A stretch of DNA of 63,858 bases, the filler included, from Hausera hauseri (lineage: Eukaryota), in the NCBI GenBank assembly GCA_046269625.1. It is 12 parts of 12 records of this genome, joined end to end, with 100 filler letters (N's around TTAATTAATTAA, not from the genome) between each part and the next. Parts side by side here need not be neighbours in the genome. Positions count along the whole stretch, not along the records: positions 23,080 to 27,414 come from JBJURY010630997.1; 11 more parts are not named here. One strand, 5' to 3'. The notes under the pieces were generated by a model, which saw only the letters and a list, made by a program, of their open reading frames with translations, had not been told where the DNA came from and ran no database searches. Positions within the stretch are counted from its first letter, which is position 1; every line of letters starts with the position of its first letter. Positions 1 through 56,797 of this stretch are shown here, piece by piece. Position numbers and translations under genes: made by a program.

Positions 1-1503
1 TGACTAATGATTTGAATAGGTTGGACTCAAATTGGGGGCCTTGATCTGTAATTATATATCTAGGAGAACCAAACCTACTGATCCAAGTACGAATGAATAC
101 GTCGGCTATTGTGTCCGTATTGGTACTCCGTAATGGGAAGCATTACGGCCGTATAGTATTCTGGTGAATGAGTTAGTCTCATGCAATACATGTTTACATC
201 CAAAACTACTGCAATTCCTAACTCGTTTATTAGCATCATCAATAACCGGAATGGAGGCTTTGCGAGAGCCGGATTACAAGAAATGCGTTGTCGACATGTT
301 CATTCATCTGTTTTGTGAAGGTGATGGTGTCATTTATAACTTCTGTTCGGCTCAACGAATTATGCAAATTTTTGTAGACGTTTTTTAAAAAACTTTGTTT
401 CAAAGGTGAAGATAATTATAAAACTACATTTGACAGGTGTATTCAAGTTTTATTTACAACTTTTAACAAGCCGGAATGGCCTGCAGCAAATTTTTTACTA
501 AACTGCATCGGCAACACCTTAATTCATTTGAATACTAATCAAACAGATCGCACAACTGCCATTGATTCCCTGGGTGTATTATGCTCTTCCCTTTGTCGTC
601 ATATTTTACTTGACGATTATAAATCGAAGTCCACCGATTCAATTGTTTGTAGTTTGCTGAATGTCATATCAAAATATTGTAAGCTTAAAGTTGAAAAATG
701 TGAAATGATTCAGACAATGACTTTGGGCGAAAAGGTTTATTTGCTAAAATATTTGGTGCTTAACTTCACGTTGGATTCATCAGATTCTACGTGCATATAC
801 GCACGGTTTTATTCCGTGGGTAGTTGGTTGCACGATTTTCTGGGCACAAATGTCGTTAAAAGTCAACATTCAAAGCAAGACAAATTTCCAGAATCAATTC
901 GTTCTTTGACAAATGCAGAAGAATGTTCCCTAATTCAGTCGCGTTTTTCTAAATGCTGTTGTTATATAACGAAATTAGCAAATCGTCAAGATTTACATTC
1001 AAACAATTCAAAGCGTTATGTGCCAAACATGTTGGGAACGTATGCGTGAATCTAATAAAAAACTGCAATGACAGACAAACCAGAGTACAGCAGTATACTA
1101 CACAGGAAATACAGCAGTACTTCGGAATCGGATTTCTCTGGTACGTCGTCTTATCTCATTGTTCATACTTTTGTTCTAAATAATGAAGCACCAGACGCTC
1201 AGGCCAGCTACTACAACTCAGGGATTTTGGGTGCGCCAGTGTTTTATACATTGCATTGCACACCCGACTTGCGTGACGATTTCGTCCCACTTGTCCTGTT
1301 ATTCAAAAATAAAAATACACAAGCATATTACATACACAAATCAACAACAATCGCAAAATTGTCAGACACGTTACGGAGACAAATAACTCGATAATTTTTG
1401 CCTAAGTTATAATGGATTTTTCTCCAACAATCCGACATTATAACTAGTTACACCCATTCATCTTCAATATCTATTCTCAAGATTTTGCCGACATTCCTAC
1501 TAT

Positions 1504-18318: not shown

Positions 18319-18898
18319 TGGTAGTAGCAAAACGCACTTTGTGTGTAAACTATTGCAGAAACACCGTGACATGTTCCATTCACCGTGGTACAATCACATA
18401 TACTGCAATCAGGGTTTGACACATCGAAAATTTTGACAATTAAAATCGATTACGGTAATTGATGGGTTTGATGAGAACTGGTTTGAGATATTACGCAACG
18501 GTGACGTTATTGTGATTGACGATTTATTTCAGGAAGCCGCGAAACAATCGGACTTCAATAATCTGTTCACGAAGATTGCACGACACTGTGGTGTGACAGT
18601 TATTTTCATTACGCAAAACATGTATAATCAGTGCGGACAACATCGAACAAGAAATCTAAACGTGCACTATTTGGTGTTGTTCAAAAATCTCCGTGATCAG
18701 ACTATTGTTGATTATGTTGCACGACAAGCGTTTCCTCTCAAACGAGCCTACTGGATAGATATTCTACGAACAAGCCGCATTGATATCTGTTTATTGACTT
18801 TACACAACAGTATCCCGATGACATGCGTGTACGAAAGGACACTTTCAAACAGAAAGGTGTATGTGTCTATAAACAAATTCAAAAATCGACACTATAGA
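18319..18898 (+). pseudogene. A32/FtsK-like packaging ATPase
   Basis: GSSKTHFVCKLL (Walker A remnant), IVIDDL (Walker B), ARHCGVTVIFITQNMY...RTRNLNVHYLVLFKNLRD. Confidence 0.85.
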
Positions 18899-18904
18899 GA
18901 TAAA

Positions 18905-19090
18905 ATGAAAAATTTCCGAAAAACAATTGTTAAACGTAAACCAACCAAATATGTATCCAAGACAAAGAAACGTGCGTCAAATACATCAAAACACAACGCT
19001 ACAGTTAAGCGATTGATCAATTCAGTGCTTCGAACTACAATATCATCAGCAGCGAGACGCAGGTTACCGTCAAAGTGGCAACGATTATAA
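18905..19090 (+). CDS. Small Lys/Arg-rich Polinton protein (possible core protein)
   Basis: MKNFRKTIVKRKPTK...SKWQRL. The homologous reading frame is conserved at 44520-44695. Confidence 0.5.
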   Translation: MKNFRKTIVKRKPTKYVSKTKKRASNTSKHNATVKRLINSVLRTTISSAARRRLPSKWQRL

Positions 19091-19351
19091 ACAACTCCGA
19101 TTCGATACATCAGTATTCGTTGATTGATTGATTGAAACATGCGTTTCAAATGTTGTCAACCGTACTTTATTGCTTTGCTTAAAGCACCGTCGAGACATAA
19201 ATGGAACATGCTGCGATCATTGCCGCAATTTGTAGTAGACGATTGATGGAAATTTTGTACAATATCGTTGTAGGTCACGTTGACATTGGTAGTGGAAATC
19301 GGAATTTACTAGAGTATGAAATCAACGGAATGCGCACAGTTGACGTAATCG

Positions 19352-19741
19352 ATGATTTGGATGTGTGACTATCAAAACCGATCACAACGACAGGCAATTA
19401 AACGTCCAAAATACAAAATCGGTGCTTACAAACGTATTTCCAAAATAAGTATGACGCCATTCATTAGGAATTTCAATCAGAATTGGAGCGATGAGGCTTT
19501 CCGCATTTCAGCAATCAACACAAAACAAACACCTGTCATGTACGTTTTAGAAGATGAAAACGGTGAGGAAATACGCGTTAAATTCTACAAACAGGAACTG
19601 CATGTACTGTCCGAGAAACCCGATGTGTATCGCATTCATGAAATTCTACGTTCATGTGGCAAATGTTCGAATAAACAATATCTCGTCAAGTGGCACGTAT
19701 ATACTGCATTGAGTTGTATTTTTGCATCACAGATTCAATGA
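19352..19741 (+). pseudogene. Polinton integrase C-terminus with chromodomain-like tail; catalytic core deleted
   Basis: PKYKIG..RISK...QNWSDEAFRI...Y.LED.NGEEI..KFY.QEL...QYLVKW. Confidence 0.85.
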
Positions 19742-20789
19742 TCAGGAGCAGCATTTATTGGTACTTCATAGTAACAGATCATTATCACAACATGACGACA
19801 ATGACAATACCGCTAAACAGTTTACCATGCACTTCGACCAACCGGTCGATTTACGCCAGGGAGCCTGGAAAGTGGCTTTCACGGAATTCACATTTACATT
19901 TTCACCAATAACAATACGTCAAAACAGTGGTATTTACTTTACCCGACATTAAACATACCCTATTTTAAATTGTTGGCGAACAATCCGACACAACAACCGA
20001 TATACTCTTCGCAATTATTCGCAACAACAATTCTCGATGTATGCTTATTTTTCAAACTACCTTATGAAACGAATACATCGAAATCCCATTAAAATGCAGT
20101 TCAAATCTACAGTTGATGGTTAGGTATGGAGTTTTCAATCAGTCAATGTACACTCAAAACGTCTACAACTAGGTGGACATGTTATAAATTGAACCTTTCA
20201 TCCAATGAGGAATCCGATATTATAATAAAGTGAATTAAGTCAGTATCAGTCTTCCGTTCATATGATACCACGCGATTAATTAATGGAAACGGAACTGGAA
20301 TTGTGTGAATATGTCAAGAAAACGGCTACATAAACTGTAAAGACATGTGAAATAAATGCAGATGGTCATATTTCGTTTACACTGCATGACAATGTAACAT
20401 ATTTTGCCTTTGATGAATTATTGGCTCGGAATCTGGGTTTTCAAAACGCGAATTCTATCAAACCATCGTTGGACAATCTGTTATTGCCAAATACAAACCG
20501 CAACTCTATGGAGCGTTTCATAAAACCAACACTTTAACGGACTTAACCGAATCCGTACTCGTTGGTGGTAAACGTAAACAACTGCCGGCTTCTATCGAAC
20601 TAGAGTCTGACACGTATAACATATTGGGCGAAACTTCGCGTTAGTGTGCTCAGACCCATGTACTTATCATTGCCTCACAATATTGTGCACAGTATTTCCG
20701 TGTATATGCTTGATAAATTTTGGAAATCCATTAAATTTCTGTTAAGGTCAACGACATATTTCACGTTACATTTTCGACGTTGTCGATAA
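19738..20789 (+). pseudogene. Minor capsid/penton protein 1
   Basis: LHSNRS...NTAKQFTMHFDQPVDLRQGAWKVAFTEF and a C-terminal TLHFRR. Homologous to 46254-47205. Confidence 0.75.
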
Positions 20790-20840
20790 TAAACAAACTG
20801 CGTCATCGTTATCATCATCATCATCATCATCATTGAGATC

Positions 20841-21901
20841 ATGAGTAATTACATGGTGTTGCCGAGCAACAGTTGCCCGACAACTCGTCCGGATAATTCA
20901 GCCGGTGAATACGTTATAGATTGCATCAATCGTTTGGATTTATCTGGAGAATGGAAGGTTTCACTGACGGAATTTAACTTTCCCTACGCACCGGTGACAT
21001 TGAAAGGTAGTATGAAAATAACGTACAACAAGACTGTTACTAAAACCAAAACACATTATTCTCCTCTGAAACTTACGAACAATAAAATAACAGTTGGAGA
21101 ATCTCCCATTTGTACAACCAAAGAAAATTACAGTTCACACGGCAAGATCGGTGTTTTTATTTTAGGAGAAAACTTACATTTTATGGCAAATTTTGAATTT
21201 ACTGCTACCGCTGATTCCCATGATATGGCACAGAAATTTGGATTCAGAAATAGAGTACAAAGATAAAGATATTAAAAGTGAATATGCAGTTGGTCCAAGA
21301 TTAAGTCACGTATATTACTAGACAAGGGTGAAATTTACCTATACAGCACAAATAGTGTCAACATCATATTTATCGATTAAAGACAATGTCTACTACGAAT
21401 ATGTAGCACACCTGTCAACACTTTTCAAATCAAAAGTACAAGGAGATATTTACAGTTTTCGAATCAGATGCAAATGGGTACATTAAATTTGAACTGGCTA
21501 AGGATATTGTGGATATTTCATTGAACAAAGCTTTGGCCATGGTATTGGGTTTTGAAAAACATCGGCTTGAGGCGAATATGAAAGCGCATATTGCAACACT
21601 TAAACCAAAGCTGAAAAACGCACATCACATGCACATTTACACAAATGTCACCGAACCGATTCTGTTGGGTGGAGTACGTGTATTGCTACTCCGTGAAATA
21701 TATCCGGAAAGTAACGGGTATACTTCTGGAGATAATATCACTCTCAAGTTCCATAATCCAATGTACTTATCTGTGGCAACTACATCCATAAACAATGTTG
21801 AAGTCAATATCAGATGTGACGCGGGCTACTTTATTGAATTTTCGTACGGTACCACAACCTCTCTATCTCTTCATTTCCATCGAAACCAACAAAATTATTG
21901 A
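20841..21901 (+). pseudogene. Minor capsid/penton protein 2
   Basis: YMVLPSNS...DNSAGEY...LDLSGEWKVSLTEFNFP and IYTNVTEPILLGG...LLREI...NPMYLSV....INNVEVNIRCDAG..I.F..G.T.LSLHF. Confidence 0.85.
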
Positions 21902-22250
21902 TTCTGAAATCGCTTCCATTTATAGGAAATCCCAGCAAGGCGGTGAACTGCCGTATTTTGTTGGTAAACAGTATGGCTCTGGATGGTTGCTTACATTGAC
22001 ACGTTTAGCATTTCCAGTGTTGAAGCGTATTGGAGCCGTGACAGCAAAAACAACACATGATGTACTACATGGAAACAAATCGATTTTACCATCATTGAAG
22101 GAACACGCCTTGATAGAAATAAAAAGCGCTGTACTGGGAGTCGTTGAATCAGTAAAAAAACAATTTGCTGGTAGTGGCTTGAGAAAGCGTGGTAGATCAG
22201 CTAGCTTTTCAACTAGAAACAAACGTCGTCGTCGTACGATTTTCGACTGA
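21895..22250 (+). CDS. PZ-like small virion protein between minor and major capsid genes
   Basis: SQQGGELPYFVGKQYGSGWL.TL.R.A.P.LK...AGSG...RRRTIFD. Position and pattern are typical of Polintons. Confidence 0.65.
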
Positions 22251-22265
22251 TTGATTGATAGACAG

Positions 22266-22979
22266 ATGACATCTGCAAAATTTGAACTGTGTATATTTGA
22301 CAAAGCCGTGTCACAAGTTACTGACAATGCAGCATTTGAAGAAATCTACCCCGTTGATGCTGTTTCAACGGACGATAACATTGACATTCAATTCAACATT
22401 ATGACATCTGACAATGATTATCTCGATTTGAAAGATACGTTACTGTATGTAAGTCGTTAAAAAGGATGCATTAACGGTTCTCGCTGCAACAGATACTGTC
22501 ACACCGGCAAATTATCTTTTCCTCACAATGTTCCAGGAGGCTTCACTGACTCTAAACAGTGTCAAAATTGAAGGCAACACCAGTCTATACAGTATCATAA
22601 CACTCATTGAAACGGCTCTGTATTACAGTGCAGACACAAAAACGACTCATTTGACGAAAACCATCGGATATGACGCTACTGCAGCAAACCAGCAGGCATG
22701 GGTGGCAGAATCAAATGCGCTTACAATTTGTAGACCGCTGTACTTTGACTTTTTCGATCAGCCAAAATACCTACTTCCCGCTGTTAAAGCCATGATTTGA
22801 CTCACACGCAGCGACAATGTCTTTGCTTGAAAACCGCAGTTGCAAATCTGAAGCCCATACTGAAAATTACCGAAGCACGATTATACGTACGTCGTGTAAA
22901 AGTAGAACCATCTGTGCTCATGGGACATCGATTGGGCTTGGAAACACAAAATGCCTGTTACCCGATACAACGCACAGAA
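22266..22979 (+). pseudogene. Double jelly-roll major capsid protein, 5' part
   Basis: KFELCIFD...EEIYPV...IQFNI..SDNDYLDLKDTLLYV...FFDQPKYLLP...ITEARLYVRRVKVEPS...NACYPIQR. Confidence 0.85.
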
Positions 22980-23079: not shown

Positions 23080-23880
23080 GTCGATAAGTCGATTTTGCAC
23101 ATGTGCCTATCGATAGTGCACCCGGAGAACTATCGATCGAAAAAGTGCCTAGCAACGGTGCCGCTTGGCACCGTTGCTAAGGGCACTTTTGCACTTTCCA
23201 TAAATCGATAACTGCATTGTGTACTATTGATCGAATCGATCTGCACTTTGTGCTAATCGATAGTGCACATGAGTGCACATCGATTGGTGCAATTGCAAGT
23301 GTGCAGCATATGCACAAGTGTGCAAAAATCAATAATATTTGATTTCCGATAAATTAAAAAGTGCTGATTAGCACCCAGGACCGGGTGCAATCGGTAGCAC
23401 ACACGATGTTGCATGTAAACGTGCAGTTAGAATTTAAATCAATTGATTGGTTTTTAAATAATTCGAAAATAGGCCCGAACCGCCACAGGCCTTTCCGCTA
23501 TAAATTTTAAATCTATGATATGAATATGGCACATATACAGGCGTGTGCAGTACTTGATGTAGTATCGAATGGTGCACAATTAAAGTGCTGTGTTTATTGA
23601 TTGTACGCATGAGCACTTTTTCACTTTACGCACATTTGCAATTGTGCAGCGTAAGATTGATGGTATTGATGGGGATCAAGTGCAGGTGGATAGAGCACAT
23701 CGCGATGCACCTTGATATGTGATGTGCAGTGCGAAAACATGTGCGCAAGTGTGCAAAAATCAAGATTATCTAATTTACGATATTTCCAATATGAATGGTT
23801 AGCACTCGGGACCGTGTGAAATCGAAAGCAAACATGATGTAGTATACGAATATGCATTTAGAATCTAAATTTATTGATAA
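23080..23880. repeat. Palindrome-rich non-coding region with diverged ~430-bp duplication and a 22-bp hairpin
   Basis: 23300-23450 resembles 23730-23880. Dense GTGCAC, ATCGAT and TGCA sites. Hairpin at 23141-23190. Confidence 0.75.
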
Positions 23881-23928
23881 ATTATTGATTAATATCTATC
23901 CATAGTGCAAATTGTTTTTTTTTTCAAC

Positions 23929-24445
23929 ATGTCTTTTAAGCCTAAGGAAGCAAATTTCGATCCAACATTGAGATGGTACAGATAGGAAATTGAGTATGCT
24001 GAACGCGAATATCTAGTCAAAAGTTCGAAATTCGAAGATTTTCGAACTCGAAAATCGAAGTTCAAACTATTAGAAAAATCTAATGGCGGGAATATATTTC
24101 TCGTATTTGAAACCCCCTATGTGCATAAAAATTATGTCACGAAAGTGTACTATATAGATACAAAATCAATATTTCGAAGTAAGCAAAATGTGTATTTAAA
24201 TTGCGATGAAGCGGAAATCGATAAATGTAATAGCGGGGCTGGATAGGAAAGTATATGTAGAAAATCGGAATATGAAGTTAGATAATCAAAAACATTATTC
24301 GAACTCGAAGAAATATCGATTCGAACTCAAATATTCGATGAAGCGTGCATTATTTGAAGAATGTAATGGCACAAATCAGTTCAGCATATATGAAAACCTA
24401 TTGGGAAATGGTGCGCGCGATATTATAAATCACTTGATGCATTAA
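23929..24445 (+). pseudogene. Unknown disrupted ORF upstream of pPolB
   Basis: ATG at 23929 with coding-like composition; contains stops and a frameshift. Confidence 0.3.
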
Positions 24446-24612
24446 AGCAAAACGAAGAAAATGGCATAAGTATGTGACAACTTCATGTAATTGATGCATT
24501 AAAACAAATGCACATTTATATATTGGCTATACAATTTTCGTTGCCGAATTTACCCCACCATTAAAATTATTTCATTACATGTATTTTACTATATCAAAAT
24601 TATTTTTCATAT

Positions 24613-27414
24613 ATGGTAAGTCTTTTTCTTATTTGTTGGCATCAGATAATTTTGTTTTTAGATGTGCAAATTGTACAAAGAATGTCTGGCTCCAATATAT
24701 GAACCAGAAACCTGTAATAGTACCATGATCAAATACAATGGCCACATGTTCAATAGGGTACTATACTGTATATGCCCTACATGTGAGGTTGTGTGCTGGA
24801 CAGTGTACAATGAATTCTACGACTCACATAAACGTCACTTGACATCCTTCGTCAAATCAAAAAAAGAAATATTCTATAGCAATATTCCAACAATGTCTAA
24901 CGTACCAAAAGAAAACAAAATGTGTTGTTCATATATGTATTCCACATGCACAATACATAATCCTGACAATTGCCACAATTCCATGAGGATTTATTATGGC
25001 CACAAATTCAATCGAATACTTTATTATATTTGCCCCTGGTGTGAGACTGTATGCCAGGACGAGTACATGCAGTTCTATGAGGATCATAAGGATCATCTGG
25101 CCGACTTTTCATCAAAGTCAAAGAAGTTTATATTTAATAAGCATAGGCCAGCTTTACAGTCCGCAGTCCCGTCCACAAGAGTAAAATGTCCATCAGCTCC
25201 ATCAGGCTCAACAGGTGTAGCGGCTCCACCAAAAAGCCAAAGACAGAGGCCAGTAGATGCTGCTGCATTAAATAATAAAATCCAAAAATGTGTCATTGAT
25301 GAAGCTGGACAAACAACCATCAAAGAGTTCCTGGAATATACAAAGGAAGAAACAGAGGGCATTCTCTAGAACAGTATGACTAAGCTCAAGGCCCTTAAAG
25401 TTAATATGAAAGTTGAGACCACATACGTCAATGTGAAAGCGGAGGAATCCGCTACGGCCTTCAAGACCAAATATAGGCCTATATTGGAAAGCACAAATAT
25501 AGCTAAATAGCTGCATGAAGAACACACGATGCTGATCCGTAAATCTGATGAGAGCCAGAGTAAAAAGAGCGCATGGGCTTTAGCAACCGTCAAGAAACTG
25601 ATTACATATGTGCACAGATACTCCCCCATGCGGGGCAGTTCATATATACAGCTTCCTGAATAGATCACTAATAAAAAGGCATGTGTCAATGTCAATAATA
25701 TCGACATGTATGCTATTTTATGTCAACTCGTACGGGATCAAATGCATTCTTACCGTGTTTCTCTATATAATTATCTTCAACATAACTACGACTTTCAGTG
25801 TATTACATTACCTCCATCCTTAGATGAAATCAAGAAGTTCAGCCGCATTAATAACATATCAATCAATATCTTTGGATTGGATGAGTAGGACAAATTCTAC
25901 CCTTTACAAATATGTAATGATGAATAAAAAGATCATAGGGATCTGCTCCTGCTAGACGATGGTGATAAAAACCATTATGTTTGGATCATGAATTTTAAGC
26001 GTTTATTCAGTTCCCAAATAACAAAGAATGAACACGAAATTGAAATATGTAAAAGATGCTTATTGCATTTCAGCGGTAAGTTAGCTGTGCAGGAACTGAA
26101 GGAACATAAAATGTGTTGTAACATCAATTATTTTGTAAGGCCAGAATTTTCCAAAGAGGACTATATCGAATTTAAGGAATTTGAGAAGACGATCAAGGTC
26201 CCAGTTGTTATCTATTGTGATTTGAGGCCATCATCAAGCCAGTTCACACATGCAGTCCCAGTTTTCAACATAGCAGTACAACGGCATACCAACATCACGA
26301 ATTATCATCATATTGTATGTATGTCAAAGGATTGCACAGTAAACCATATCTATTCAGGGGTACAAGTGCAGCAGCACATTTCATGGAGAGACTTGAAAAC
26401 ATGGCTCATAATTTAAAAAAGATGCGACAACAACATAAGAACGACATGAGCATGTACTGGATACAAGAACAAGAATGTGCAAGGCAGCATCATGCTACTT
26501 GTGTGACAAGTCCTTCACCAAGGAAAATTGGAAAGTTAAGGATTACTGCCATTTTACAGATACATATCGTGACGCAGCATGAAACAACTGCAATCTACGA
26601 TGCAAAATATGCACATATGTGCCTGTGGTATTCCACAATCTCAGCGGCTATGACAGCCACTTCATAGTACGATAATTAGGCAATATTGATGGCAATATAA
26701 AAGTGATTTCCAGCAGTGAGGCGAAATATATCACTTTCACTAAGCATGCTGGAAAAATTCGATTTCGATTCATTGATAGTTTCCGATTCATGTCGTCTTC
26801 ATTGGACAGTTTAGTAAAGAACCTGCCTACCGAAGAACTCAGGGCAACGAAGCAATTCTCTCCGGATACCTTCGACTTGGTTAAAAGGAAAGGAGTGTTT
26901 CCCTATGACTATATAACATCATGGGAAACACTGGATGAGTCCTTATTACCTCCCAAGGATGGATTTTACAGCCAGTTGTCAGATAGTGATATCAGTAATT
27001 AGGATTACCAACATGCTCAGAACGTCTGACAGGCATTCCAATGCAGAATATTAGGGGAATATAGTGATATATATCTTCAAACCGATGTGCTTCTGCTAAC
27101 ATGTATTTGAAAGTTTTAGGGATGTCACAATGAAGAGCCATACTTTGGATCCAGCTCATTTCTTCGCGGCTTCAGGTATGAGCTGGACAGCAATACTGCG
27201 CTATACTGGTATCAGGCTACAAATTATTAAGGACTATGACATGATCCTTATAATTGAAAGAGACATTAGAGGAGGAATATGCCAAGCCATTCACCGGTAT
27301 AGGAAGGCCAACAACAAGTATATGGCTGAATACGACACAACAAAGGAGTCATCATATATTTCCTACCTGGATGCCAACAACTTGTATGGATGGGCAATGA
27401 GCGCCCCATTGCCA
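24613..27414 (+). pseudogene. polB: Protein-primed family B DNA polymerase (Polinton/adintovirus type), degenerate and 3'-truncated
   Basis: PMRGSSYIQLP...KKACVNV, VVIYCD (ExoI), endonuclease VII-like Cys cluster, VFHNLSGYDSHF (ExoII), RFIDSFRFMSSSLDSLVKNL, KGVFPYDY, YLDANNLYGWAMSAPLP. Confidence 0.9.
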
Positions 27415-40706: not shown

Positions 40707-42805
40707 CTGATTAGCCTACTCACTTTGATGATGCTAATTAAGCATATAAGCGCTGTAACTGTCTACGACTGCGGTAAGTTCAAACTAGGACAGAGATATT
40801 CCTTAATGAATCTTGAAATATGCGAAGATGCCAGACCATACAAATTGGCGACAAAAGAGAAAAATTACTTTCTATATCAGCAGCAGGAATTGATATCGCT
40901 AGATGGAATAGAATGTATGCTGAGACGATGGCGTAATATTTTTCTCTGTGTTTTGGTTCATGGACATTCATCTATAATCAAACCAACGACTCCACTAATT
41001 CCAATGGACTTAGAACGCCAAAACGCCAAGCAAGCCAAGGAAACTGGGAAAATACAATGTGACAGTATGCAATTAGAGATGCAGCCAGGAAAAATAATTA
41101 GGGCATATAAAATAGTGGCCGGAAGATTGGATATGCATAGTGGACATTGTAATGGAGCAGAATACGACACCGGGAAGGGATTGGAGGCAAACGTAGTGGT
41201 TGTGGATTTCTACAAATCAGAAATGCGATCACAGGTGGTAATGTTCCATAGTGTCACCAAACTATATACAGAAAATCAAAAATGTCATTTACAAGACGGG
41301 ATCTGTACTTTTAGAAGTTCGGTTATAATATGGGAACCTCCCTCTGGAAGAAATTGTAATATTATTAAAATTAAAGAACTAAAGTTCAATGAGACTACAG
41401 GAAAGCGATATGTGGACAAATCAGAAACTAATTCGAGGACACGTGAGGATGTATCAGAACACTCTACACCTACTATATTAATTTCGGATCAGCATGAATT
41501 GAAATTTATTAAAAAAGAGATGATTTCTCGCTGTGATGTAGTGATGTTTGCTACGAACTATGAGGCGCTTTTCGTCGCAGAAACGGAGATAAGTGCGAAA
41601 ACTTATAAGCTAGAAATGCAGGATGTCCGCATCGAAGATTACCTGACGAATAGCGACAATTACTTTTAATACAAAGGACAAGTCGGAATAACGGAATTAT
41701 ATCATAAAATGATAATGAATGACTGCAAATTGGATACGGAAATCATGAGAACTAAAATGGCTCTGATATATGCAAACCCAGAATTAACTTTACCAATAAT
41801 TCCAATGAGAGAAGGAATTTTTGGTCGGGGAACAGGCGAAGTATTGCTAACTTATGAATGTGAAAAGAGAGATGTACCCATTAACGTGGAAGAAAAACGT
41901 TGCATTCAAGAACTTCCTGTTATTTACCAAAGTATTCCGAGATTAGCTACACAGCTGACGAGAGTGTTATTGGATAACGCTACCCAACCGACCTTCCTTA
42001 AAAATTGTAAAGCAAGCTTAGGAGAACCTATGTTTAGACGCAGTGACACAGATTGTGTTAGCTTGCCAAATGGAGGTATTATTGCCGCACCAAACAAATT
42101 AAGAGGAACAAACCTCGCAAAAGGAATTACAGACAATAAATTTCAAGACACTTCATCGAAATCATATATAGACCGAAGGAAACTGAGGCCTTTAGACAAT
42201 TCCTTGCCTTTCCACAACAACGAAAACATAAGTTAAACCGAGCTATGGCCTTGGTAGTAGACGACACCCGATATCAAGCTAAATCGGAATCTTTACTCGG
42301 TGTAAACCATTATCAGCGAGTAACAACCGAAATAATTTGCAAAATGTGGGAAAGATTTCTGATATTCGAAAAAGCTGCATCCGGATTCTAAGCGATATAT
42401 TTTTTGATACAGATGATTAAAGCAGTCATCCAAGCAGTAATAAATGGCTATGAAATATTTACGTTGACTGGATTTTCATGTAAAATATTAACGGCGATTA
42501 TAACGCCCTTTTGAAAGTTTTTAAAAGCATATGAAGAGAATAAATGGAAATCTGACGTAGAACGCCATGTTGGATATTACCACCGTAAAAGAAAAGGAAG
42601 GCCTACATTTCTGTACAAGCGGAAATTTATAAAGCATAACGCGGGAAGAAATAATTCAGATGATGAAGATCCTAAGGGAGGCGAAGCATTTTCAGGAATA
42701 AACCGACATAAGGCATACTCTGTCATTAAAACGCCGTTGCCTATGATACCTCCTACCGCCCCATTTTACAAAGATTGTGACAAACGATCCATGAATTCGT
42801 ATTAG
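40707..42805 (+). pseudogene. env: Class III fusion glycoprotein (chuvirus G/gB-like env), degenerate
   Basis: Signal LISLLTLMMLIKHISA then VYDC...YSL...EIC. GHCNG..Y. C....G.C......W. GEVLLTYEC...CIQELPV.Y...TRVL. Membrane-proximal W.RF..F...SGF.AIYFLIQMIKAVI..VING near 42350-42510. Confidence 0.8.
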
Positions 42806-45165: not shown

Positions 45166-46257
45166 ATGCAAGCAGAAAAACCGACACCATCGACGGAAAC
45201 AACGATAAACGATGTGTAGTTCAACCCACGTGATCCTGTCGGCTATACTGGCGTCGACAAACTGCCAAAGATTGTCAAACAGACTCGGCAACACACCAAA
45301 CGTTGGCTTAGGAAACAGTTAGCATACAGCCTAAACAAACCGATAAGAAGGTGGTTTTCAACTCGTGCATACCGTGCTGCCGGTGTAACTAATGTATGGC
45401 AAATGGATCTGATGGAAATGATTCCGTACGCCAGCATTAATGATGGGTATCGATACGTGCTGATATGTGTTAATGTGTTTAGTCGTTTTGCACGTGCAAT
45501 TGCCGTAAAATCTAAATCCTGTAAAGAGATTGCCGACGCTGTTCAAACACTGATACATCAACAATAACAACAACAACCGAAGCATTTACAAACGGATTTG
45601 GGTAAGGAATTCTACAACCCCCACGTTGCAGCGGTCTTGAAACGGTTCGGCGTAAACCAATACTCAGTGTTTTCCCAATACAAGGCTGCACTCACTGAAC
45701 GATTTAATCAAACATTCCGCGGTCGCTTAAACAAATTCTTTACGAAGCAAGGCAACAAGCGCTGGATAGATGTACTGCTGGATATTATTCATGCATACAA
45801 TCATTCGACACGCCGTAATATTAATGGATTACGGCCGGTTGACGTAATCGATGATTTGGACATGTGGCTTTATCAAAACAACCGAACAACACAACGAGGA
45901 CGACAGGCAATTAAACGTCGCCCAAAATATAAAGTCGGTGATTATGTACGTATTTCAAAGCTTAATACGACGCCATTCATAAAGAATTTTAGTCAGAACT
46001 GGAGCGATGAGGCTTTCCGAATTTCAGCAATCAACACAAAGCAAAGTCCGGTTATGTACGTTTTAGAAGATGAGAATGGTGACGAAATACATGGCAAATT
46101 TTACGAACAGGAACTGCAAGTACTATTGGAAAAACCTAACGTGTATCCTATTCAGAAAATTCTACGTTCACGTGGCAAAGGTTAAAATAAACAATATCTC
46201 GTCAAGTGGCACGGATACACTACACCGAGTTGGATATTTACATCGCAGATTGAGTGA
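45166..46257 (+). pseudogene. Retroviral-type (rve) integrase with chromodomain-like tail
   Basis: DDE motifs WQMDL, LQTDLGKEF and TERFNQT, plus QYLVKWHGY. Three premature stops. Confidence 0.92.
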
Positions 46258-47205
46258 TGATTATTTATTTGGTACTTGATAGTAACAGATCATTATCACA
46301 ACATGACGACGACGACGCCGACGACGATACCGCTAAACAGTTTACCGTGCACTTAAACCAACCGGTCGATTTACGCTACGGAGCCTGGGAAGTGGCTTTA
46401 ACGGAATTCATGTTTACATTTTCACTAATGACAATAAGTCAGAACAGCGGTATTTACTTTACTCGACAAGAAACTTACCCTATTTTAAGTCGTTTGCGGA
46501 CGATCCGACACAATAACCGATATTTTCTTCGCAATTATTCTCGAGAAAATTTTTCGGTTTATGCTTATTTTTCAAACTACCGTATGAAACTAAAGCATCG
46601 AAATCCCATGGAAATGCAGTTTAAATCTATAGCTGATGCTCAGGCATGGGGTTTTCAAGCAGTCAATGTAAACTCAAAACGTCTACGGCGAGGTGGACAT
46701 GTTATAATTGGTAAAAAATTGGACTTTTCATTTGATGCAGAATCTGATATTATAGTAAAGTGGACTAAGTCAGAAGCAGTCTTACTCTATTATACTATAC
46801 CACATAATTTAATAATGGAAACGGAACTGGAATTGTGTGAATACATCAAGAAATCGGCTGCATTAGCCGTAAAGACACGTGAAATAAACGCATATAATCG
46901 TATTTCGATTACACTACATGACAGTGTTACATTTTTTGCCTTTGATGAATTATTGGTTCGAAATCTGGGTTTTCCCCAACGTGAATACAATCAAAGCATT
47001 GTTGGACAATCTATTGTTGCCAAATACAAACCACAACTTTATGGAGCATTTCACTAAATCAACATTGTAACGGACTTAACCGAATCCGTACTCCTTGGTG
47101 GAGAACGTAAACAACTGCTGGCTTCTAACGAACTGGATTCTGACACGTACAAAACATCATCATCGGGTGAAACTGTTCGCGTTATTATGTTCAGACCTAT
47201 GTACT
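46254..47205 (+). pseudogene. Minor capsid/penton protein 1
   Basis: YLVLDSN.S...TAKQFTVHLNQPVDL..GAWEVALTEF and INIVTDLTESVLLGG..KQLL. Confidence 0.8.
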
Positions 47206-47541
47206 NNNNNNNNNNNNNNNNNNNNNNNNNNNNNNNNNNNNNNNNNNNNTTAATTAATTAANNNNNNNNNNNNNNNNNNNNNNNNNNNNNNNNNNNNNNN
47301 NNNNNACCGGTCTCAAAATGTCTAATGTACGCAATGATGATTTAAAGTGTCGACTAAACATTGAGTTGCAAGGACACAAGGAAAAAGCCGGTATCAAAAT
47401 CCCGATTTGGCATGTAGCTGAAGCACATTTTAATTATCAATAAATTTTGTTGTTGTTTTGTTTTACCGTTTTTCTTTCATCAACCCAATTAACGATTAAA
47501 TATATACGTGTAATTTTAATATTGGTATAAGAATAATGATA

Positions 47542-48003
47542 ATGAATGATGTAAATATTACCTTAACAGACGAAAGTGCCTTTGTACCGAGACGTGTTAC
47601 AGCAAACAGTGCAAGCTACAATGTGTTTTCAAATGTCAATACGACAATTTCGAACAGCACAATCACATGCATAACAACTGGGATTTGATTGGCGATTCCA
47701 CCCGGTTACTACGGCCAACTTTTATCGAAAATCGGACTGGAAAAGCTCGGACTGACGGTTGTGGGCGGCGTCATTGATTCGGATGTTCGTGGTGAAATTA
47801 AAGTGTTGGTGAAAAAGCAATCCGGCGAACCGTATGCTTTTACGAAAGGCAGTGCAATCGCATAAATCGTTTTTCTTCGCTTTGATGAGGCGGAATTCAG
47901 TGTAATGTCACCGGAACAGTGGGTACTGTTTTGTGTCAATGAAACGCTGAATGAACGCAAAGAACGCGGTTTCGGTGATTTAGACAAAACTACTTTTGTT
48001 TAA
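47542..48003 (+). pseudogene. dut: Trimeric dUTPase (missed by the ORF track; two stops)
   Basis: P.R.TANSASYNV...TTGI*LAIPPGYYGQL...VGGVIDSDVRGEIKV...IA*IV...RKERGFG, covering dUTPase motifs I-V. Confidence 0.9.
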
Positions 48004-48089
48004 TGATTTGTGATGATAATAGCAATAGTTGTTTTGTTTGTGTTATAGAAAGAAAATGATTCTGTACATGATAAGTAATAGCGGCAAGA

Positions 48090-48564
48090 TTTATAGATAT
48101 TGAAACTTTCAAAGATGATAATGCCTAGTACCTGATAAAGGAATTATGCATTATGGGCGTCGGTAACAATTTCAAACCGCTTGTGTACGTATTAAAACCC
48201 GGTGTTGTGTAGAATAACCTGACAGAAAAAGCGAAAATTACCAATGGATCTCATACGACGTCGTCATGGACTTTATTGGCACGAAGGCAATTCAACGTTT
48301 TGTGTATCATGTACCATGCGAGACATTTGTGATCGTTTTGACATTGAAAATACAATATTTTACATTAAAGATCTAATTGGCGGACAAAAGTTTACGCAAC
48401 TCCATTCACAGTTTCCCGAGTTGCGAATGACGACGTATTCAACATCGAACAGCTCGCTGGCGATGGTACCTAATAATACTGTATGTCCGTATCGTGATCA
48501 TGGACCGCATTGTGCTTACAAAAAATGTCAACGGCTTTGTATTGACTATATTTCATGCAAATAA
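48090..48564 (+). pseudogene. Polinton-associated DEDD-exonuclease-like protein
   Basis: IDIETF...IKEL.I...YVLKP....L....K.TN...RHGLYWHEG...CPYRDH..HCA. Frameshifted. Confidence 0.5.
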
Positions 48565-48701
48565 ATGTATTTCTGTTTCTTTTTTCTTTCCGTAAATATG
48601 GTCCGTCGTATTGGTCAGTTGAATAATTCAAAAACTATAAATACGAGTAGGTTATAGTAGTAATAATAATCATCACGGAAATAGTTAATCAACTGAAGCA
48701 A

Positions 48702-49142
48702 TTGCAAAATATTGACGGATTGTCAATTTCAGACTCGGTGCAATGGTGGCAAGTACTTGATAGTGAGCTGGTTGCAAGAGCAGCAGGTGAATTTGGATTT
48801 AAAGATTTAGAGTCAATAGCATTGATGACAGCAACAGATTGCAGCTCTATAGAAAATCTAATTATGTTAAATCAAATGTACATTCACCGATTGTACGATA
48901 CAAATTATTTTAATACTGTTGAAAAGGTACGCGGTGAATTAGCGAATTTGAAAGAGAAAATAATGGACAAAGTACGAAACTTACAGTTTATGTATGTACT
49001 ATGTAAACAAAGAAAAGTGGATACGGTATTCTTAATGTGCGGCCATCTTGTAGTTTGTCAAATGTGTTCCACCAAAGTAATACACCAATGTCCAGAATGT
49101 AAATGTGCTATAATAAAAATTGTAGACATTTATTACGAATGA
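48702..49142 (+). CDS. IAP/Mdm2-type C-terminal RING protein
   Basis: VLC.....TVF.MCGHLVVC.MC......CPEC...I......Y. The first Cys is replaced by Tyr. No BIR domain was seen. Confidence 0.7.
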   Translation: MQNIDGLSISDSVQWWQVLDSELVARAAGEFGFKDLESIALMTATDCSSIENLIMLNQMYIHRLYDTNYFNTVEKVRGELANLKEKIMDKVRNLQFMYVLCKQRKVDTVFLMCGHLVVCQMCSTKVIHQCPECKCAIIKIVDIYYE

Positions 49143-49274
49143 CTTCAATAACGGAACATGGGCTTAAATGACGTGGAGGTAATTTGTATCATTGCGATGA
49201 GATAATACTCAAAGTAAATGTCTATTGTTTGCAATGAAAACACACCAGTATGAACAAATTTGATATAAATATGG

Positions 49275-49773
49275 ATGCAATTTCATTTCACGTTTCTCTT
49301 ATTTAAAAAAAGGCTTTGGAAAACAATTCAGCAGGTGACATTGTCTCAAAAAAGCCAAGGTACAGCGAATATTCTCAGAAATTCCCGGTTGTATAATGGA
49401 TACAACTTACATTATCTGCGCAACGCTATTCAATTGCCACTGATGCAAACTGTCAAAATCAAACTGGTTAAATATGGTCTATTGGTGAAAAAGATCAGCG
49501 ACGATGATTTGGATACGATGGAAGACACAATTAGAAAAGTTGACAGTGATTTGGCGTTGAGTAACAATATCCGAGATATATCGTCGATTTTTCTCAAAGG
49601 AAATATGGTGAAAATTGTCAGTTCACATGGTGGAGAAATCGCAGCAGCAACAATAAAAACAGTTTTGCCACGGAAGGATCTAAAAGTCTTCTAACACTGA
49701 AGTTGGAAGGATACAAGGGTTTGCACAACGTTAAATTACCAATATTGAAGCTGGGAAAGATTACGTTGATTTG
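49275..49773 (+). pseudogene. Unknown Polinton accessory protein
   Basis: 139-aa ORF with a probable frameshifted tail and a downstream AATAAA, converging on polB. Confidence 0.35.
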
Positions 49774-49974
49774 ACTTACTTTGTTTTTGATTTTAGCTTA
49801 TGATGATGAATAAATTTTATTGGTTTTGTTTGTTTGTTTTTTATATTGTTTCTCGTCACATTAAGTTAAACATAAAAGTACATTAAGTGATAATAAAATA
49901 ATAAAACAAAAGGCAAAACAGTGCACAATATACATTACTTATAAAACACAGCTAACAACAAAATGCCATAGTCA

Positions 49975-52900
49975 ATTGATCTCTCTGCACCGATTTAATC
50001 TGTGTGTGCGTGTTGTATTCCAAACGCCAATGTCAGTACGCCCAATTCTTATTCCGCCCCACCCACTTTCGCTTGTCACCGTTGCATGACAAAGCAACCT
50101 TTTTCTTTTGTGGTGTACAGCTGGTGCTTAATCTATCGTACGGTCGTTTGAGACACAACAGCCTTTTCTTCTTCTTCTTCTTGTCCATGATAGACGCGGC
50201 GATAATCACGGTGATTTATTTCCGTCTTCTTCAGCTGGATACCTTTTGCCCGCATTTTTGGCCCACAGTCCATCAGAAGACTCTAGCACTTTGGGCGCAA
50301 AAATATCCATTCCCTGTATTGAACCTAGCCTTCACTTTCGTCCTTAAAGCAGCCGATTTTGTTTGTTATCGGGCTGCTGTACAGAGGATGGTTCTGCAGG
50401 TAGTTGGACGTGTCCAGTAGACCATCTGACATTATTTGTCGGAACACCTAGTCATGATTTATGTTATTCAGCTCAAGGAAAAGCTGTCTGTGTCACCGGC
50501 AATGATACTAATCTCATAGCCGTCGAACATTTGCCGGTAACGTGCCAAATCGCGATACTGGAGCTCGTACATTCGCAACTTGCTCAAATCCAATACCACT
50601 TGTCCGATATAGCTTTGTCGATCCAGTACGACATCTTCTCTGTTTAGAAACACGGCGACCAATCCATCGGCAATGTGCATTGATCGCCTGAACTGGGCCT
50701 TGCTGGTGTATGTAACCAGTCGTTTTTTGTTATTGCACAGGCGCATATTGAGCCGCTTCTTCAAATTCTCCACAATTTTTCCGTACAGTGAATGAGCTTG
50801 TAATAGTCCTTTTCGAACTTTGTACAAGCTGCGGCTCGTTTTTCTGAATTTCCGTCAATGTATGCCTTGAATATCAGCGGCTGATTGAATTGGTTTGCGC
50901 GATATATCTGTGTTACATGTACACCGAGCTGCATGTAGAACTGTTGCATACGCCAATGGACCACGTAATTCAGCTTCGGTTCATGCGTCATGAGCAGTTT
51001 CTTTACGTTTGAGCCTGGTGGACACTGAATAAATGGTGCGACCGGTAAATCATTCAAAACATCATGCAAATCATCTGGTACCTAGAGATCGATCTCCATC
51101 AGGTATTGAACTGAGCCTGCCATGTCTTCTCGTGGTAGGTTGACCATTATGTCATCCAGATCTTGTCTGTCGACTACCCATTCGAATGAACCGTATGGCA
51201 AGGGTTGCAAAAGCGCCCAGCAGTACAGGTTATTAATATCTCTATACAGCAGTGATGTGGTATCGGCGGTAGCACTGACCTGATGCTTGTTGACAAAAGT
51301 TATGCCACCGTGAATATTAACATCAAACAGCCAGTACATTTTCGGGTCTTGCAGCAGCTCAATATCTCGATTCAGTGACACTAGAGCTGACGCCCCATTT
51401 TTTCCCGGTATAGAATAAAAGTTGAGTGGCTCCAACCTATCTTCAGCCAACGCTTTTGCTCGAAACGCCTGGAACACATCGGCTAACAGGTACACGTCCA
51501 GTTTAAAATACTAGAGAATGTAATCCAACATGTTTCTACGGCCGAGTTCTGTCCAACACCTCTGTGTTTCCCGGTATTCATCCTTTGTGATACCTGTCCA
51601 TCGCGGCGGTAATTCCTCTGCTGTCCGGAGTCGCTCATATGAGGTTGCAAAGTCATATAGAAATATGCCTTTGCTGCGTGCACTATGTGTGGGGAATTGT
51701 GTTTAGGTTATTGGCACATCCGGCAAGGCATTTACCAGCTTCGCCAGTGATTCATTGAGAAATTCCAATGAATCAAGGAAGCGTACCTGGAACCGGTTTA
51801 TAGGTGCTGACAGGGACAGGTACTTCTCTATTATTGTTGGGATTATGGACAGGTCCCAGTGTGGAAATCCGTTGATGGCCCATTTGAGTATATGATGACA
51901 ATCATAACCTCGGAAATTATGAAAGATCACCGGTAGGAATGGCCGCACACGCCTTGCCAAATTGCATGAATTGCATGCCGCTGCTAGGAATCGACCGGTA
52001 AAATGATCATTATCCGGTACGAGCCATTCCTGTGCGTCAAACGGTAATATTTTGTGGCACAGGTAACATTCTTCTGTGACTGCAAACGTCAGGCGTTCGT
52101 ATTCGTATGTCCAAATCAGGAGTTTTGTGCTGTTATTGCGATACCACTGTGCGATTTCCGATTCAACTATTGCTTCCAAATGATTCAGGAAATCACGTAC
52201 AGAGTCCCAGCCATGAAACATGTAACATTGCGGTTGACATGCAGCTTTTATTGGAACAATAACATTTCAATGGCGATTGGAACATGTTTTTGATCGTATA
52301 CATTGTGCCGCAGTAGGATTCCCTCAATATCAGCATATACCACATATGCTGGACTGTCCGTTTTAGATTAGTCACTAAATTGCAGCTCCTTTTTGATTGA
52401 CATGTCGTACATAGTTGTTCCTGATATAATTTGTCTGCACAGCGTCACATGTTTTTTCCAAGTGGTTTCTGATTTGAAGCCATGCAGACATACAGGACAC
52501 CATTTACAACGTATACGCTTTTCGATGAACTGATGGTGGTCCATGTTCAACAGTCGGTCCAAATTTGTTACGGCCACGTAATGAAATTTTTCTGCCTGAT
52601 CCAACAATAACAAATTTACTGTGCGTCCATTCGGGTTCCGACTTCGATAGATTATATCCACATGTGGATTCTTGTAAATTTCTTTGTCTGCCGGTATTTC
52701 AACTATTGCATTGTACCGGAACACGTTGATTGACAGCGTTGGATTACGCCGTTCAAATGTTGGAATGGTTTTTCGTTTCATCGGCATCCAGTTTTTGTCG
52801 AATTTCAATTCGGAGAAATACTGCCGATACTGACTTGGACAACATGTCTGTCCACTTCGTCATATTTTAATACCGCCAGAATACTGTAAATAAAACAGTA

Positions 52901-53920
52901 ATTATCGTCCGTGTTTTACATTCATTACCGCATATGAGTGCTTTAGAGCTTCAGGTGTTGATATGAATGAACGTCCGGACAGTTAAATTATGTCAATCGA
53001 CTATGTTATAATAAAACCGAGAGTGACGATTTTTATTATTCGCCAACCACTGCCCTTTTCGGTGTAGTTGGCAATTTTTAGGTCCAGCTTTTCGCCTATA
53101 TCGGCAATGAAATCTTTGGAATATGGAACTGCTCGATGTGACAGGTACCATTGTTTCCTGTCACTCTGCAGATTATCAAAATCTGCAAGTGCATAATATT
53201 GAACTTTGCAGTTGTGGTTTTTGAATTTCTCCACTTTGGTTTCTAACCGATTACGCACATGAGCGGGCACATGCCTTAGTTGAGTTGCTGATCTCGCCGA
53301 GATGTTTACTTTTATGTCCACGTAAGATCTGTTTACATCGTACTTGACAGTAATGGGTGGTTCCTGCTGCTGCTCCGTATTGCTGCTTTGCAGGTATTCG
53401 TCAAGATTTGTTGATGCTTGACGTTTTTTGCTTGTTGAGGGAATACTGCTATTTTCTGCCGCCATTAATATTTTCTTTTTCGACCTCTGAAACTGGTTCA
53501 AGTGGTCCCAGTGCTCATTATAAAACTGTTCATAGTTGATTTCACCAACTATAGAACAACAATCGGGACAAACGTAGGCCCGTTTACAGTGCATCGTTGT
53601 GGCGCCATAGCATTGCTCCATTGCACTATGGCAACCATCCACGTCGTTCACTGTACTTGTACAGTACCGTGAGTACATGGGCAATGCACTACCATCATCT
53701 TCTTCGACCGTGTTGTAAACGGTCCGAGATGATGCTTGTGCATCTTATAAAAATCGGGGTACGGACATTTGGCTGAAATATTATTACACGTCGGACACAG
53801 ATATGAGTCCGGACCAATGCTGTAATATTTCGCCATCTGTTGATGGCACTGACCACCCCCCCCACATGTATACGAGAGACGCAATACATGGGATATTACT
53901 TGATTTCTAAATTTAAACAA
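49975..53920 (-). pseudogene. polB: Protein-primed family B DNA polymerase (second lineage), near full length, frameshifted
   Basis: KGSGW, VVYADIE, CYLC...DHFTGRFLAAACNSCNL, VIFHNFRGYDCH, RFLDSL, LDVYLLADVF, DINNLY.WAL.QPLP, KDYYKL..SLYGK, GDTDSF. Confidence 0.92.
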
Positions 53921-54346
53921 ATCAAAGTAAATGTTAACATTAAATATAATTATATAATAAATTGATATACACTAACTTATTTCTTTTACTCAGGTATAAA
54001 CATATTAACCAAATTACATATTACAACTTAAATGAAAGAGTACATTGAGAGTGAAATTCGGAAATTGACAGATGACATAATGACTGGATACGTGTTTGAC
54101 GTTCAGTATCTATGTGAGCTGACAGAAACCAGGATAATGAGCAGACGAGAGTATACTGAATTAATAGTCTAATCTCTCTTCATAAAACGTATCGAAGATG
54201 AGTGGAAACGAAAGGGGCAACAACGACGACGTATTAATTTCCTCATTGGACTTGTATTTACTGCTTTGCTTTGTATTGTAATGAAAAAGTTGATTGACCG
54301 TATTTAACCACAAATATATAATTTCGCTACGTTTTTGTTTTTATTT

Positions 54347-54365
54347 TGTGTGTGTGTGTGTGTGT
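54347..54365. repeat. (GT)n microsatellite
   Basis: GT run upstream of a TATA box. Confidence 0.9.
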
Positions 54366-54424
54366 TCAAGCTACACTGCAGTATAAATACTTATGCTTTT
54401 TCTTTCTTTCCATAAGATTATATA

Positions 54425-54883
54425 ATGACTTACTTGGCGACACAACTCATTAGCTTATACCACTTATTCGACGGTCTCCGGAACTACCTGTACAATCTCG
54501 ATCGACCTTTGGACAATGCTCGATATTTGCCTCCGGAAGAGCTACTTCTACTTGCTGAGCAGAACTGGAGGGCACGCGAACCTTACTTACGCCATATGAA
54601 GCAGGTTGTTGGTGATATGGAATTTTTATTCTGTAAGATTTTTTGCTCATATGGAAAATGGACGACGTTGGACGATAATCCTCGTCAAGTACGTCAATTT
54701 ATGACCGATTTTGTCAAAAAACGTGGTGGTAGTGGTGGTCAGACGGATTACATTCCTACGTGGCAGTCAGCAGATGAAATTTGCTTCAAGCAATATTGCA
54801 ATATGACTAATTCCGATGGTCTCGATCATTCTTCTTCTTCTTCGGAATTGACTAATCCCTGTGGTTTGTGTAATCCGAATTAA
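54425..54883 (+). CDS. Hypothetical protein, divergent from polB
   Basis: Intact 152-aa ORF, TATAAA at about 54382 and AATAAA at about 54915. Confidence 0.6.
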   Translation: MTYLATQLISLYHLFDGLRNYLYNLDRPLDNARYLPPEELLLLAEQNWRAREPYLRHMKQVVGDMEFLFCKIFCSYGKWTTLDDNPRQVRQFMTDFVKKRGGSGGQTDYIPTWQSADEICFKQYCNMTNSDGLDHSSSSSELTNPCGLCNPN

Positions 54884-55143
54884 CTCGTACGATTTAGTAG
54901 CAGTAGCAGTAAAGAATAAAAGTTTGACGTAAACTTTGTTTTCTCGTTACTCAAACGACCATTATAGCGAGGTAGGTGCGAAAAGGTATTGTCCAAAACT
55001 AGGTCAAACAAAAAATGTTTGTTATAGTCAGATAGGTGGGGAANNNNNNNNNNNNNNNNNNNNNNNNNNNNNNNNNNNNNNNNNNNNTTAATTAATTAAN
55101 NNNNNNNNNNNNNNNNNNNNNNNNNNNNNNNNNNNNNNNNNNN

Positions 55144-55828: not shown

Positions 55829-56550
55829 ATGGCATCTGCAAAATCTAAATTGTGCATATTTGACAAAGCCGCACCATAAATTGTTATTGACAATGCGGCA
55901 TTTGAAGAAATCCAATTCAACATTATAGCATCGGACAATAAACATCTCGATTTAAACGATACGTTTCTGTATGTAAAAGTCATTGTTAAAAAGGATGCAT
56001 CAACGGTTCTCGCTGCAACCAACATTGTCATACCGGCCAATTAACTTTTCCTCACACTGTTTCCGGAGGTTTCACTGAATCTAAACAGCGTCAAATTTGA
56101 AGGCAAGATCAGTCTATACATTATCAAAGCACTCGTTGAAACGGCTCTGAACTACAGTGCGTACACGAAGACAACTCACTTGACAAAAACCATCTGATAT
56201 GACGTCAGGCATGGGTGGCAGAATCAAAAGCTGAAATGCCTACTGTCCCGTGTTAAAGCCATGATTCGGCTCAAACGCAGCAACAATGTCTTTTGTTTAA
56301 AAACCACAGATGCACAGCTTAAACTCATACTGAAAATTACCGAGGTACGATTATACGTACGACGTGTAAAGGCAGAACCGTCTGTGCTCATGGAACATCG
56401 ATTGGGCTTGGAAACGCAAAATTCATGTTACCCGATACAACGCCCAGAACTCGTCTTTTACACCATACCGAAAGGTTCAACTACGTTTTTCAAAAATGCA
56501 CTGTTTATGACATGCGAATACCGAAATTTGTGCTCGTTACATTTCAAACA
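55829..56550 (+). pseudogene. Major capsid protein, internally deleted
   Basis: MASAKSKLCIFD...LDLNDTFLYV...IRLKRS...LYVRRVK...YPIQR...IPKFVLVTF. Confidence 0.85.
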
Positions 56551-56554
56551 ACCG

Positions 56555-56797
56555 CTCAGTCACTACGGAAAACTGCTCTTGGGTGTGAAATTTCGTGGCA
56601 TGTTTCCATTGGATCGTGTGCCGCGTGATTTGCGACAAACCGGCGGCTTTATTGTCAATACACAAACTTCGTCGTTGCCGGGCGAACATTGGATTGCTGT
56701 GTATGTCCACCATCCGACCAACGTCGTCAGAGTATTCGATCCGTTCGGATTTTACTATCCGTCATCGTTAGTTTCTAAAATTGAACGGCAATCACCA
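56555..56797 (+). pseudogene. Adenain-like maturation cysteine protease, N-terminal part
   Basis: FRGMFPLDRVP...FIVNTQTSSLPGEHWIAVY...FDPFG (catalytic His/Asp region). Confidence 0.88.

Follow-up and report, generated by a model that had tools for sequence, protein, structure and literature searches.

The closest described relatives of the genes analysed here are the pPolB of Polintons/Mavericks. According to the available text of PMC11161782, polinton pPolB has the order TP-vOTU-EXO-PALM, and a cut has been hypothesised between the terminal protein (TP) and the vOTU that leaves TP on the 5′ end; the handling of the terminal protein before integration is termed unclear there. As far as the available text of PMC4974454 goes, the phi29 terminal protein's N-terminal domain shows non-specific DNA binding and nucleoid targeting, and the terminal protein of adenovirus ties the genome to the nuclear matrix. 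To the known polinton polyprotein our analysis adds a Cys/His domain ahead of TP; it is a real domain, recurring in dozens of elements and uncatalogued, whose function we infer.

The window, that is, the whole stretch of 63,858 nucleotides analysed, consists of 12 pieces with linker gaps between them, and the two polymerase elements lie on separate pieces: the lineage-1 element on the plus strand of 23080-27414 (JBJURY010630997.1) and the lineage-2 element on the minus strand of 47306-55043. Because it holds decayed remnants of Mavericks/Polintons alongside ORFs of retroelements and a fusion glycoprotein of chuvirus type, we regard the window as animal repeat DNA. A Monjiviricetes-type fusion glycoprotein gene (40707-42233, plus strand) is made up of two ORFs with a stop between them (E 8.6e-16 and 2.9e-10). 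Further Maverick-like pieces occur on separate fragments (45220-47054, 56198-56800 and 18437-22800, all on the plus strand), among them an rve integrase (E 4.8e-5), adenain (E 0.002) and ORFs that, judging by eye, we take to be packaging-ATPase-like and capsid-like. A presumably host-like ORF fragment at 378-1046 (plus strand) may resemble the cohesin loader Nipped-B, and a Pfam search with it returned nothing below E 0.01. Contigs from four runs, belonging to four studies, covered all 30 bins of the lineage-1 piece, with 81,420 of them in a single run; this stretch is therefore a high-copy family and not an assembly artefact. The run that matched it best may be from the source sample.

Two pPolB loci headed by the same Cys/His repeats

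A six-frame profile search revealed four copies of the repeat domain across the window, at 24662-24874 (repeat 1A), 24920-25138 (1B), 53851-53693 (core of 2A) and 53681-53463 (2B). All six pairs of repeats scored above 2000 of 2000 shuffles, and pairwise BLASTP between the lineages was significant (E 2e-12 and 8e-8). The four copies and the shuffle test bear out the proposal, made in a preliminary description of this DNA, that a real Cys/His domain is present in two divergent pPolB lineages.

The lineage-1 piece starts with a non-coding, repeat-rich region (23080-23893) that contains a 156-nt direct repeat, whose two copies are 73% alike and stand 431 nt apart, a 20-nt motif occurring five times and a hairpin at 23141-23190. 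This is possibly the subterminal region of the element; no terminal motif was seen in it. A small decayed ORF with stops (23929-24480, plus strand) lies between this region and the polymerase gene. On the plus strand, an ATG directly precedes an intron-like stretch of 46 nt, GT...AG (24616-24661; together 24613-24661), which is predicted from its sequence to be spliced and abuts the ATG of the repeat ORF. The latter (24662-25369, 235 aa) contains both repeats, each of about 72 residues and 43% identical in one alignment. In both, the core is intact (CPxC-x14-H-x2-H in 1A) and the N-terminal cap, described below, is incomplete. Downstream follow a low-complexity linker (25139-25255), in which the basic cluster is weak (3 K/R in 18 aa, as in the lineage-2 linker), and a terminal-protein (D1)-like region (25256-25618), in frame and with stops at 25367 and 25508. 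From its position, its similarity to relatives and the available text of PMC11161782, we infer that this region corresponds to the terminal protein. The remainder of the broken pPolB (25619-27414) comprises a vOTU-like part, the exonuclease region and the start of the palm, with more stops and three frame changes up to the end of the piece; the vOTU Cys motif of relatives is missing from this copy. A full-length relative can be aligned in one frame over 24770-26224, across five stops, into the polymerase N-terminal region, and the lineage-1 repeats are thus in frame with pPolB, as had been claimed.

On the minus strand of the lineage-2 piece, repeat 2A (53693-53901) combines the core with a weak cap-like piece (53901-53866; score 0.3 in the six-frame profile search) that has a stop and lies in a third frame, and repeat 2B (53463-53681) is in a frame different from that of 2A. 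The same duplicated domain had been said to head this second polymerase; both repeats were indeed found, but each in a different frame, and their cores, which are free of stops where about two would be expected, are nevertheless frame-broken. A linker, terminal-protein-like and vOTU-like regions and the broken polymerase follow (50021-53462, minus strand), including an endonuclease VII/HNH-like insert. This insert gave a Pfam E of 3.1e-4 in the window (51706-52266, minus strand), 7.9e-9 in the relative P0064 (residues 585-626) and 4.3e-5 in P0035. In the available part of 10.1101/2023.08.22.554363 an HNH insert is called unique to nematode and oomycete pPolB2; its spread may be wider. The piece also carries, on the plus strand, a RING finger (48651-49139; Pfam E 6.4e-8) convergent to the polymerase, possibly an element-borne ubiquitin ligase or an IAP remnant, and a 155-aa ORF (54416-54880), divergently oriented to the polymerase, with no Pfam match. 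PF03175 matched lineage 2 at its cut-off (E 5.9e-6), the lineage-1 fragment with E 0.037 and P0035 with E 3.7e-7; P0064 gave no match to it. Both window copies are decayed and probably inactive.

An uncatalogued domain fused to pPolB in relatives

As the preliminary description had suggested, a profile was built from the four window repeats; it was compared with 1.84 billion representatives at a cut-off of E <= 0.001. Sixty matches were obtained, four of which were repetitive false positives and were removed; the other 56 are real. The term tandem suits the window elements, with two copies each, but 39 of the 56 matches have a single copy (many of these are fragments), 13 have two and four have three. 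In all 52 rows of the alignment C, C, F, H and H are invariant, as is the spacing H-x2-H, and the core motif reads [YF]-x-CPxC-x13/14-H-x2-H-[LA]-x2-F, followed by lysines; among 75 repeats the central spacing is x14 in 45, x13 in 24 and x12 in one. The invariant C, C, H and H make zinc binding likely. In relatives, a cap with four ligands, C-x4/6-C-x4/5-H-x2/5-C, is located ahead of a conserved Met and precedes the core in 48 of 77 repeats. First repeats often appear without it merely because the predicted ORF begins at an internal Met; however, it is missing outright in 8 of the 21 non-first repeats, so we consider the cap optional. In P0017, P0029, P0047 and P0065, which have two or three copies per protein, a Trp-containing motif takes its place. 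The cap is not complete and in frame in any of the four repeats of the window, which explains why the consensus first drawn from them captured the Cys/His core but omitted the cap.

No family in Pfam, NCBIfam or PHROG claims the domain, and no confident match to a described pPolB zinc-finger family emerged, in agreement with its initial description as unrecognised. Our search of the main texts of openly accessible papers and preprints listed none that describes it; such a domain could be present on the annotated genome maps of the adintovirus literature, under the label 'Ziftr'. The suggested structural check gave two confident models (mean pLDDT 86 for repeat 1B, and 88) but no clear fold match by Foldseek among solved and predicted viral structures. 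Each copy is predicted to fold as helix, hairpin, strand, helix and helix around a C2H2 site, and the cap would form an optional second, C-C-H-C site; the cap region reached a pLDDT of 85-90 in the model of a relative whose cap is intact, versus 55-73 in the window repeat. For both models the top rows were DNA-binding C2H2 fingers (Kaiso), with non-significant E values of 1.6-2.5 over about 33 columns. BFVD contributed one IAP-labelled row (E 6.5, TMq 0.27), and absence from these lists does not exclude a BIR fold.

The fusion itself is evident from two stop-free, full-length polymerases with two repeats each, one per lineage: P0064 (1286 aa), closer to lineage 1, and P0065 (1326 aa), closer to lineage 2, which are 29% identical over 1337 columns. 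The domain is therefore joined to the front of pPolB, ahead of the terminal-protein region, as had been proposed. Sixteen matches extend at least 100 aa past the last repeat; 13 of them fit a terminal-protein/vOTU profile (E < 1e-5, leave-one-out for seed rows), two fit it weakly and one does not, and no other domain was found downstream of the repeats among the profile matches. Another 35 of the 56 terminate within 60 aa after the last repeat, and the downstream context is beyond their reach. Ten of these 35 end in Gly and a hydrophobic run, which could correspond to an exon read into an intron, or to a separate protein. In the linkers of 10 of 14 relatives there is a basic cluster (at least 6 K/R in 18 aa), against 2.1 expected from catalytic-region stretches, with linker ends drawn by eye. 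The terminal-protein (D1) fold of polintons has a linking Ser/Tyr beside Gly/Pro. Further downstream, an S-G/D-W motif is present in the conserved terminal-protein-like region of 8 of the 10 relatives checked, and vOTU Cys and His motifs, assigned by position alone, in all four relatives long enough for both.

Trees of the domain were mostly poorly resolved. Support for pairing 1A with 1B is weak (83/87 and 81/0), the best-supported branch unites the repeats of P0029 and P0065, and a single clade for lineage-1-type repeats was tested and not rejected (p-AU 0.12). The presence of the domain in both lineages may be due either to ancestral retention or to swapping.

Candidate roles on the genome ends

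We tentatively favour, at a likelihood that falls just short of an even chance, an accessory zinc module that, together with the basic linker, would remain at the genome ends along with the terminal protein and act as a nuclear or chromatin tether. This reading draws on the proposed TP cut, the phi29 and adenovirus precedents, the basic linker and the free copy number. The order, in one frame, is one to three repeats, a low-complexity basic linker, the terminal-protein-like region, vOTU and polymerase. If, as the available text of PMC11161782 suggests, the vOTU cuts behind the terminal protein, anything ahead of TP, and hence everything upstream, would be kept covalently on the 5′ ends. By analogy with the terminal proteins of phi29 and adenovirus, nuclear import may be the task of the basic cluster, whose frequency in the linkers of relatives lends indirect support to nuclear targeting; the zinc modules might hold on to chromatin, to a nuclear protein or to DNA with no strict sequence specificity, and extra copies would add avidity. 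The variable copy number and the missing caps fit such an accessory module. On the other hand, the basic cluster speaks for import by the linker and not for a role of the repeats, and the window linkers are poor in it; the position of the cut has the status of a published hypothesis for polintons, and another cut could release the repeats; structural comparison gave no relative from which a function might be borrowed; and the matches that end soon after the last repeat, ten of them exon-like, could represent a separate protein. It is conceivable, but doubtful, that the place ahead of the Maverick terminal protein is a variable 'slot', filled by a new two-zinc fold in one to three copies or by classical C2H2 arrays as exon-like modules, which would ride the genome ends, choose the chromatin or host factor for docking, replication and integration, and pass as a cassette from one polymerase lineage to another, distant one.

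The preliminary description had suggested origin binding. The repeats would then recognise terminal or subterminal repeat motifs sequence-specifically and bring the terminal protein into place for priming, which we consider unlikely. The Kaiso-type Foldseek rows point to DNA binding but are not significant, and the spacing is unlike that of classical fingers. Behind the core there is a conserved basic patch (K at 51% and 65%), and 35 of 75 repeats carry a net positive charge; in 40-44%, however, the helix that would do the reading has an acidic first turn. Classical C2H2 fingers occur further upstream in 3 of the 56 matches, and the lineage-1 repeats lie downstream of a motif-rich non-coding region, but those of lineage 2 have another ORF upstream, and no non-coding DNA common to 23080-24661 and the second element was found. 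The suggestion thus gained no positive support.

We also hold it to be improbable that the domain senses ubiquitin or a host protein for counter-defence, working with the neighbouring vOTU deubiquitinase-like domain. The two share one polypeptide in P0064 and P0065, but the terminal protein lies between them and the proposed cut would part them. The acidic helix and conserved aromatic residues would suit a sensor, as would fast divergence and variable copy number. Matches to Pfam zf_UBZ (2 of 52 rows, best E 0.0029) and BIR (4 of 52, best E 0.0054) were all under the curated cut-offs, and the fourth ligand is His, versus Cys in BIR.

There is still less reason to expect a structural or self-association module of the replication complex that brings the ends together by touching integrase, polymerase or another copy of the terminal protein. 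The position at the genome-end protein agrees with it, and the available part of a preprint (10.64898/2026.10.13.758929) suggests pPolB and integrase on the same ends, possibly with an adapter; however, the copy number ranges from 1 to 3, the cap is optional, and the polinton polymerase modelled in PMC11161782 has, in the text available, only D1 and D2 before the exonuclease.

The lineage-1 ORF had been described as still open within a broken gene. Its 705 nt are indeed without a stop or frameshift, where about 4 would be expected, but this is only weakly unusual (P 0.04-0.06 for the repeats, 0.01-0.02 with the linker, whose end point is post hoc). Since the lineage-2 cores are frame-broken and the caps are decayed in all four window copies, selection on the lineage-1 copy is unsupported, and so is the idea that the domain was retained in a broken gene. 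That the host kept this ORF as a separate gene after the death of the polymerase is highly improbable despite the open stretch: the copy had been chosen for its readability, it differs inside the 1B cap from nearly all sister contigs, both lineage-1 caps are incomplete, the lineage-2 domain is broken and the element is a high-copy family.

Comparison with known systems

The domain bears on the ways in which integrated Mavericks/adintoviruses get into the nucleus and select their sites, and on what happens to the terminal protein before integration. It adds a family that Pfam lacks and for which neither solved nor predicted viral structures offered a clear counterpart, and as a small, well-folding domain ahead of the terminal protein in two lineages about 29% identical it offers a handle for expression and assays.

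Classical C2H2 fingers have the spacing C-x2/4-C-x12-H-x3/5-H. The repeats resemble them (PF00096; Kaiso, Serrate/ARS2) in having C-x2-C and then a two-His helix and in the weak structural rows, but they have x13/14 and H-x2-H, an extra N-terminal helix, three strands, a C-terminal helix and the optional cap. The spacing speaks against this family; the repeats do not match PF00096, whereas the true fingers upstream in three matches do. The ligand set of the BIR domain is C-x2-C...H-x6-C. An aromatic pair, a hairpin, C-x2-C and a helix with His are common to BIR (PF00653) and the repeats, but the fourth conserved ligand here is a His three residues on, not a Cys, and Pfam stayed below its cut-off, both of which speak against BIR.

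The same viral consortium has zinc-motif proteins that are often encoded upstream of PolB, namely NS3 of densoviruses, bidnaviruses and granuloviruses, 'Oncoid' and 'Ziftr' (PMC4061559, PMC8502044 and 10.1101/2024.03.25.586562, in the text available). These are separate genes, whereas the repeat domain is fused to pPolB, and they are set apart by their descriptions; likewise by description, densovirus/bidnavirus NS3 was rejected as stand-alone with four conserved Cys (PMC4061559), in contrast to the pPolB-fused C2H2 core. The phi29 and adenovirus terminal proteins (PMC4974454, available text) share an accessory region on a genome-linked primer protein and serve as a functional model only; the phi29 N-terminal domain is helical, basic and of an unrelated fold according to the available part of PMC11161782, and no homology is claimed.

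The nearest system is the pPolB of Polintons/Mavericks (Alpha-class adintoviruses; PMC11161782 and PMC8502044, in the parts available), which has the same polyprotein order that is found behind the repeats; PF03175 hits in both window elements and the vOTU Cys/His motifs assigned by position in relatives add to the likeness. The word 'zinc' is absent from the available text of PMC11161782, and the polinton pPolB described there has two globular N-terminal domains (D1 = TP, D2 = vOTU), whereas in the polymerases analysed here one to three folded domains stand ahead of D1.
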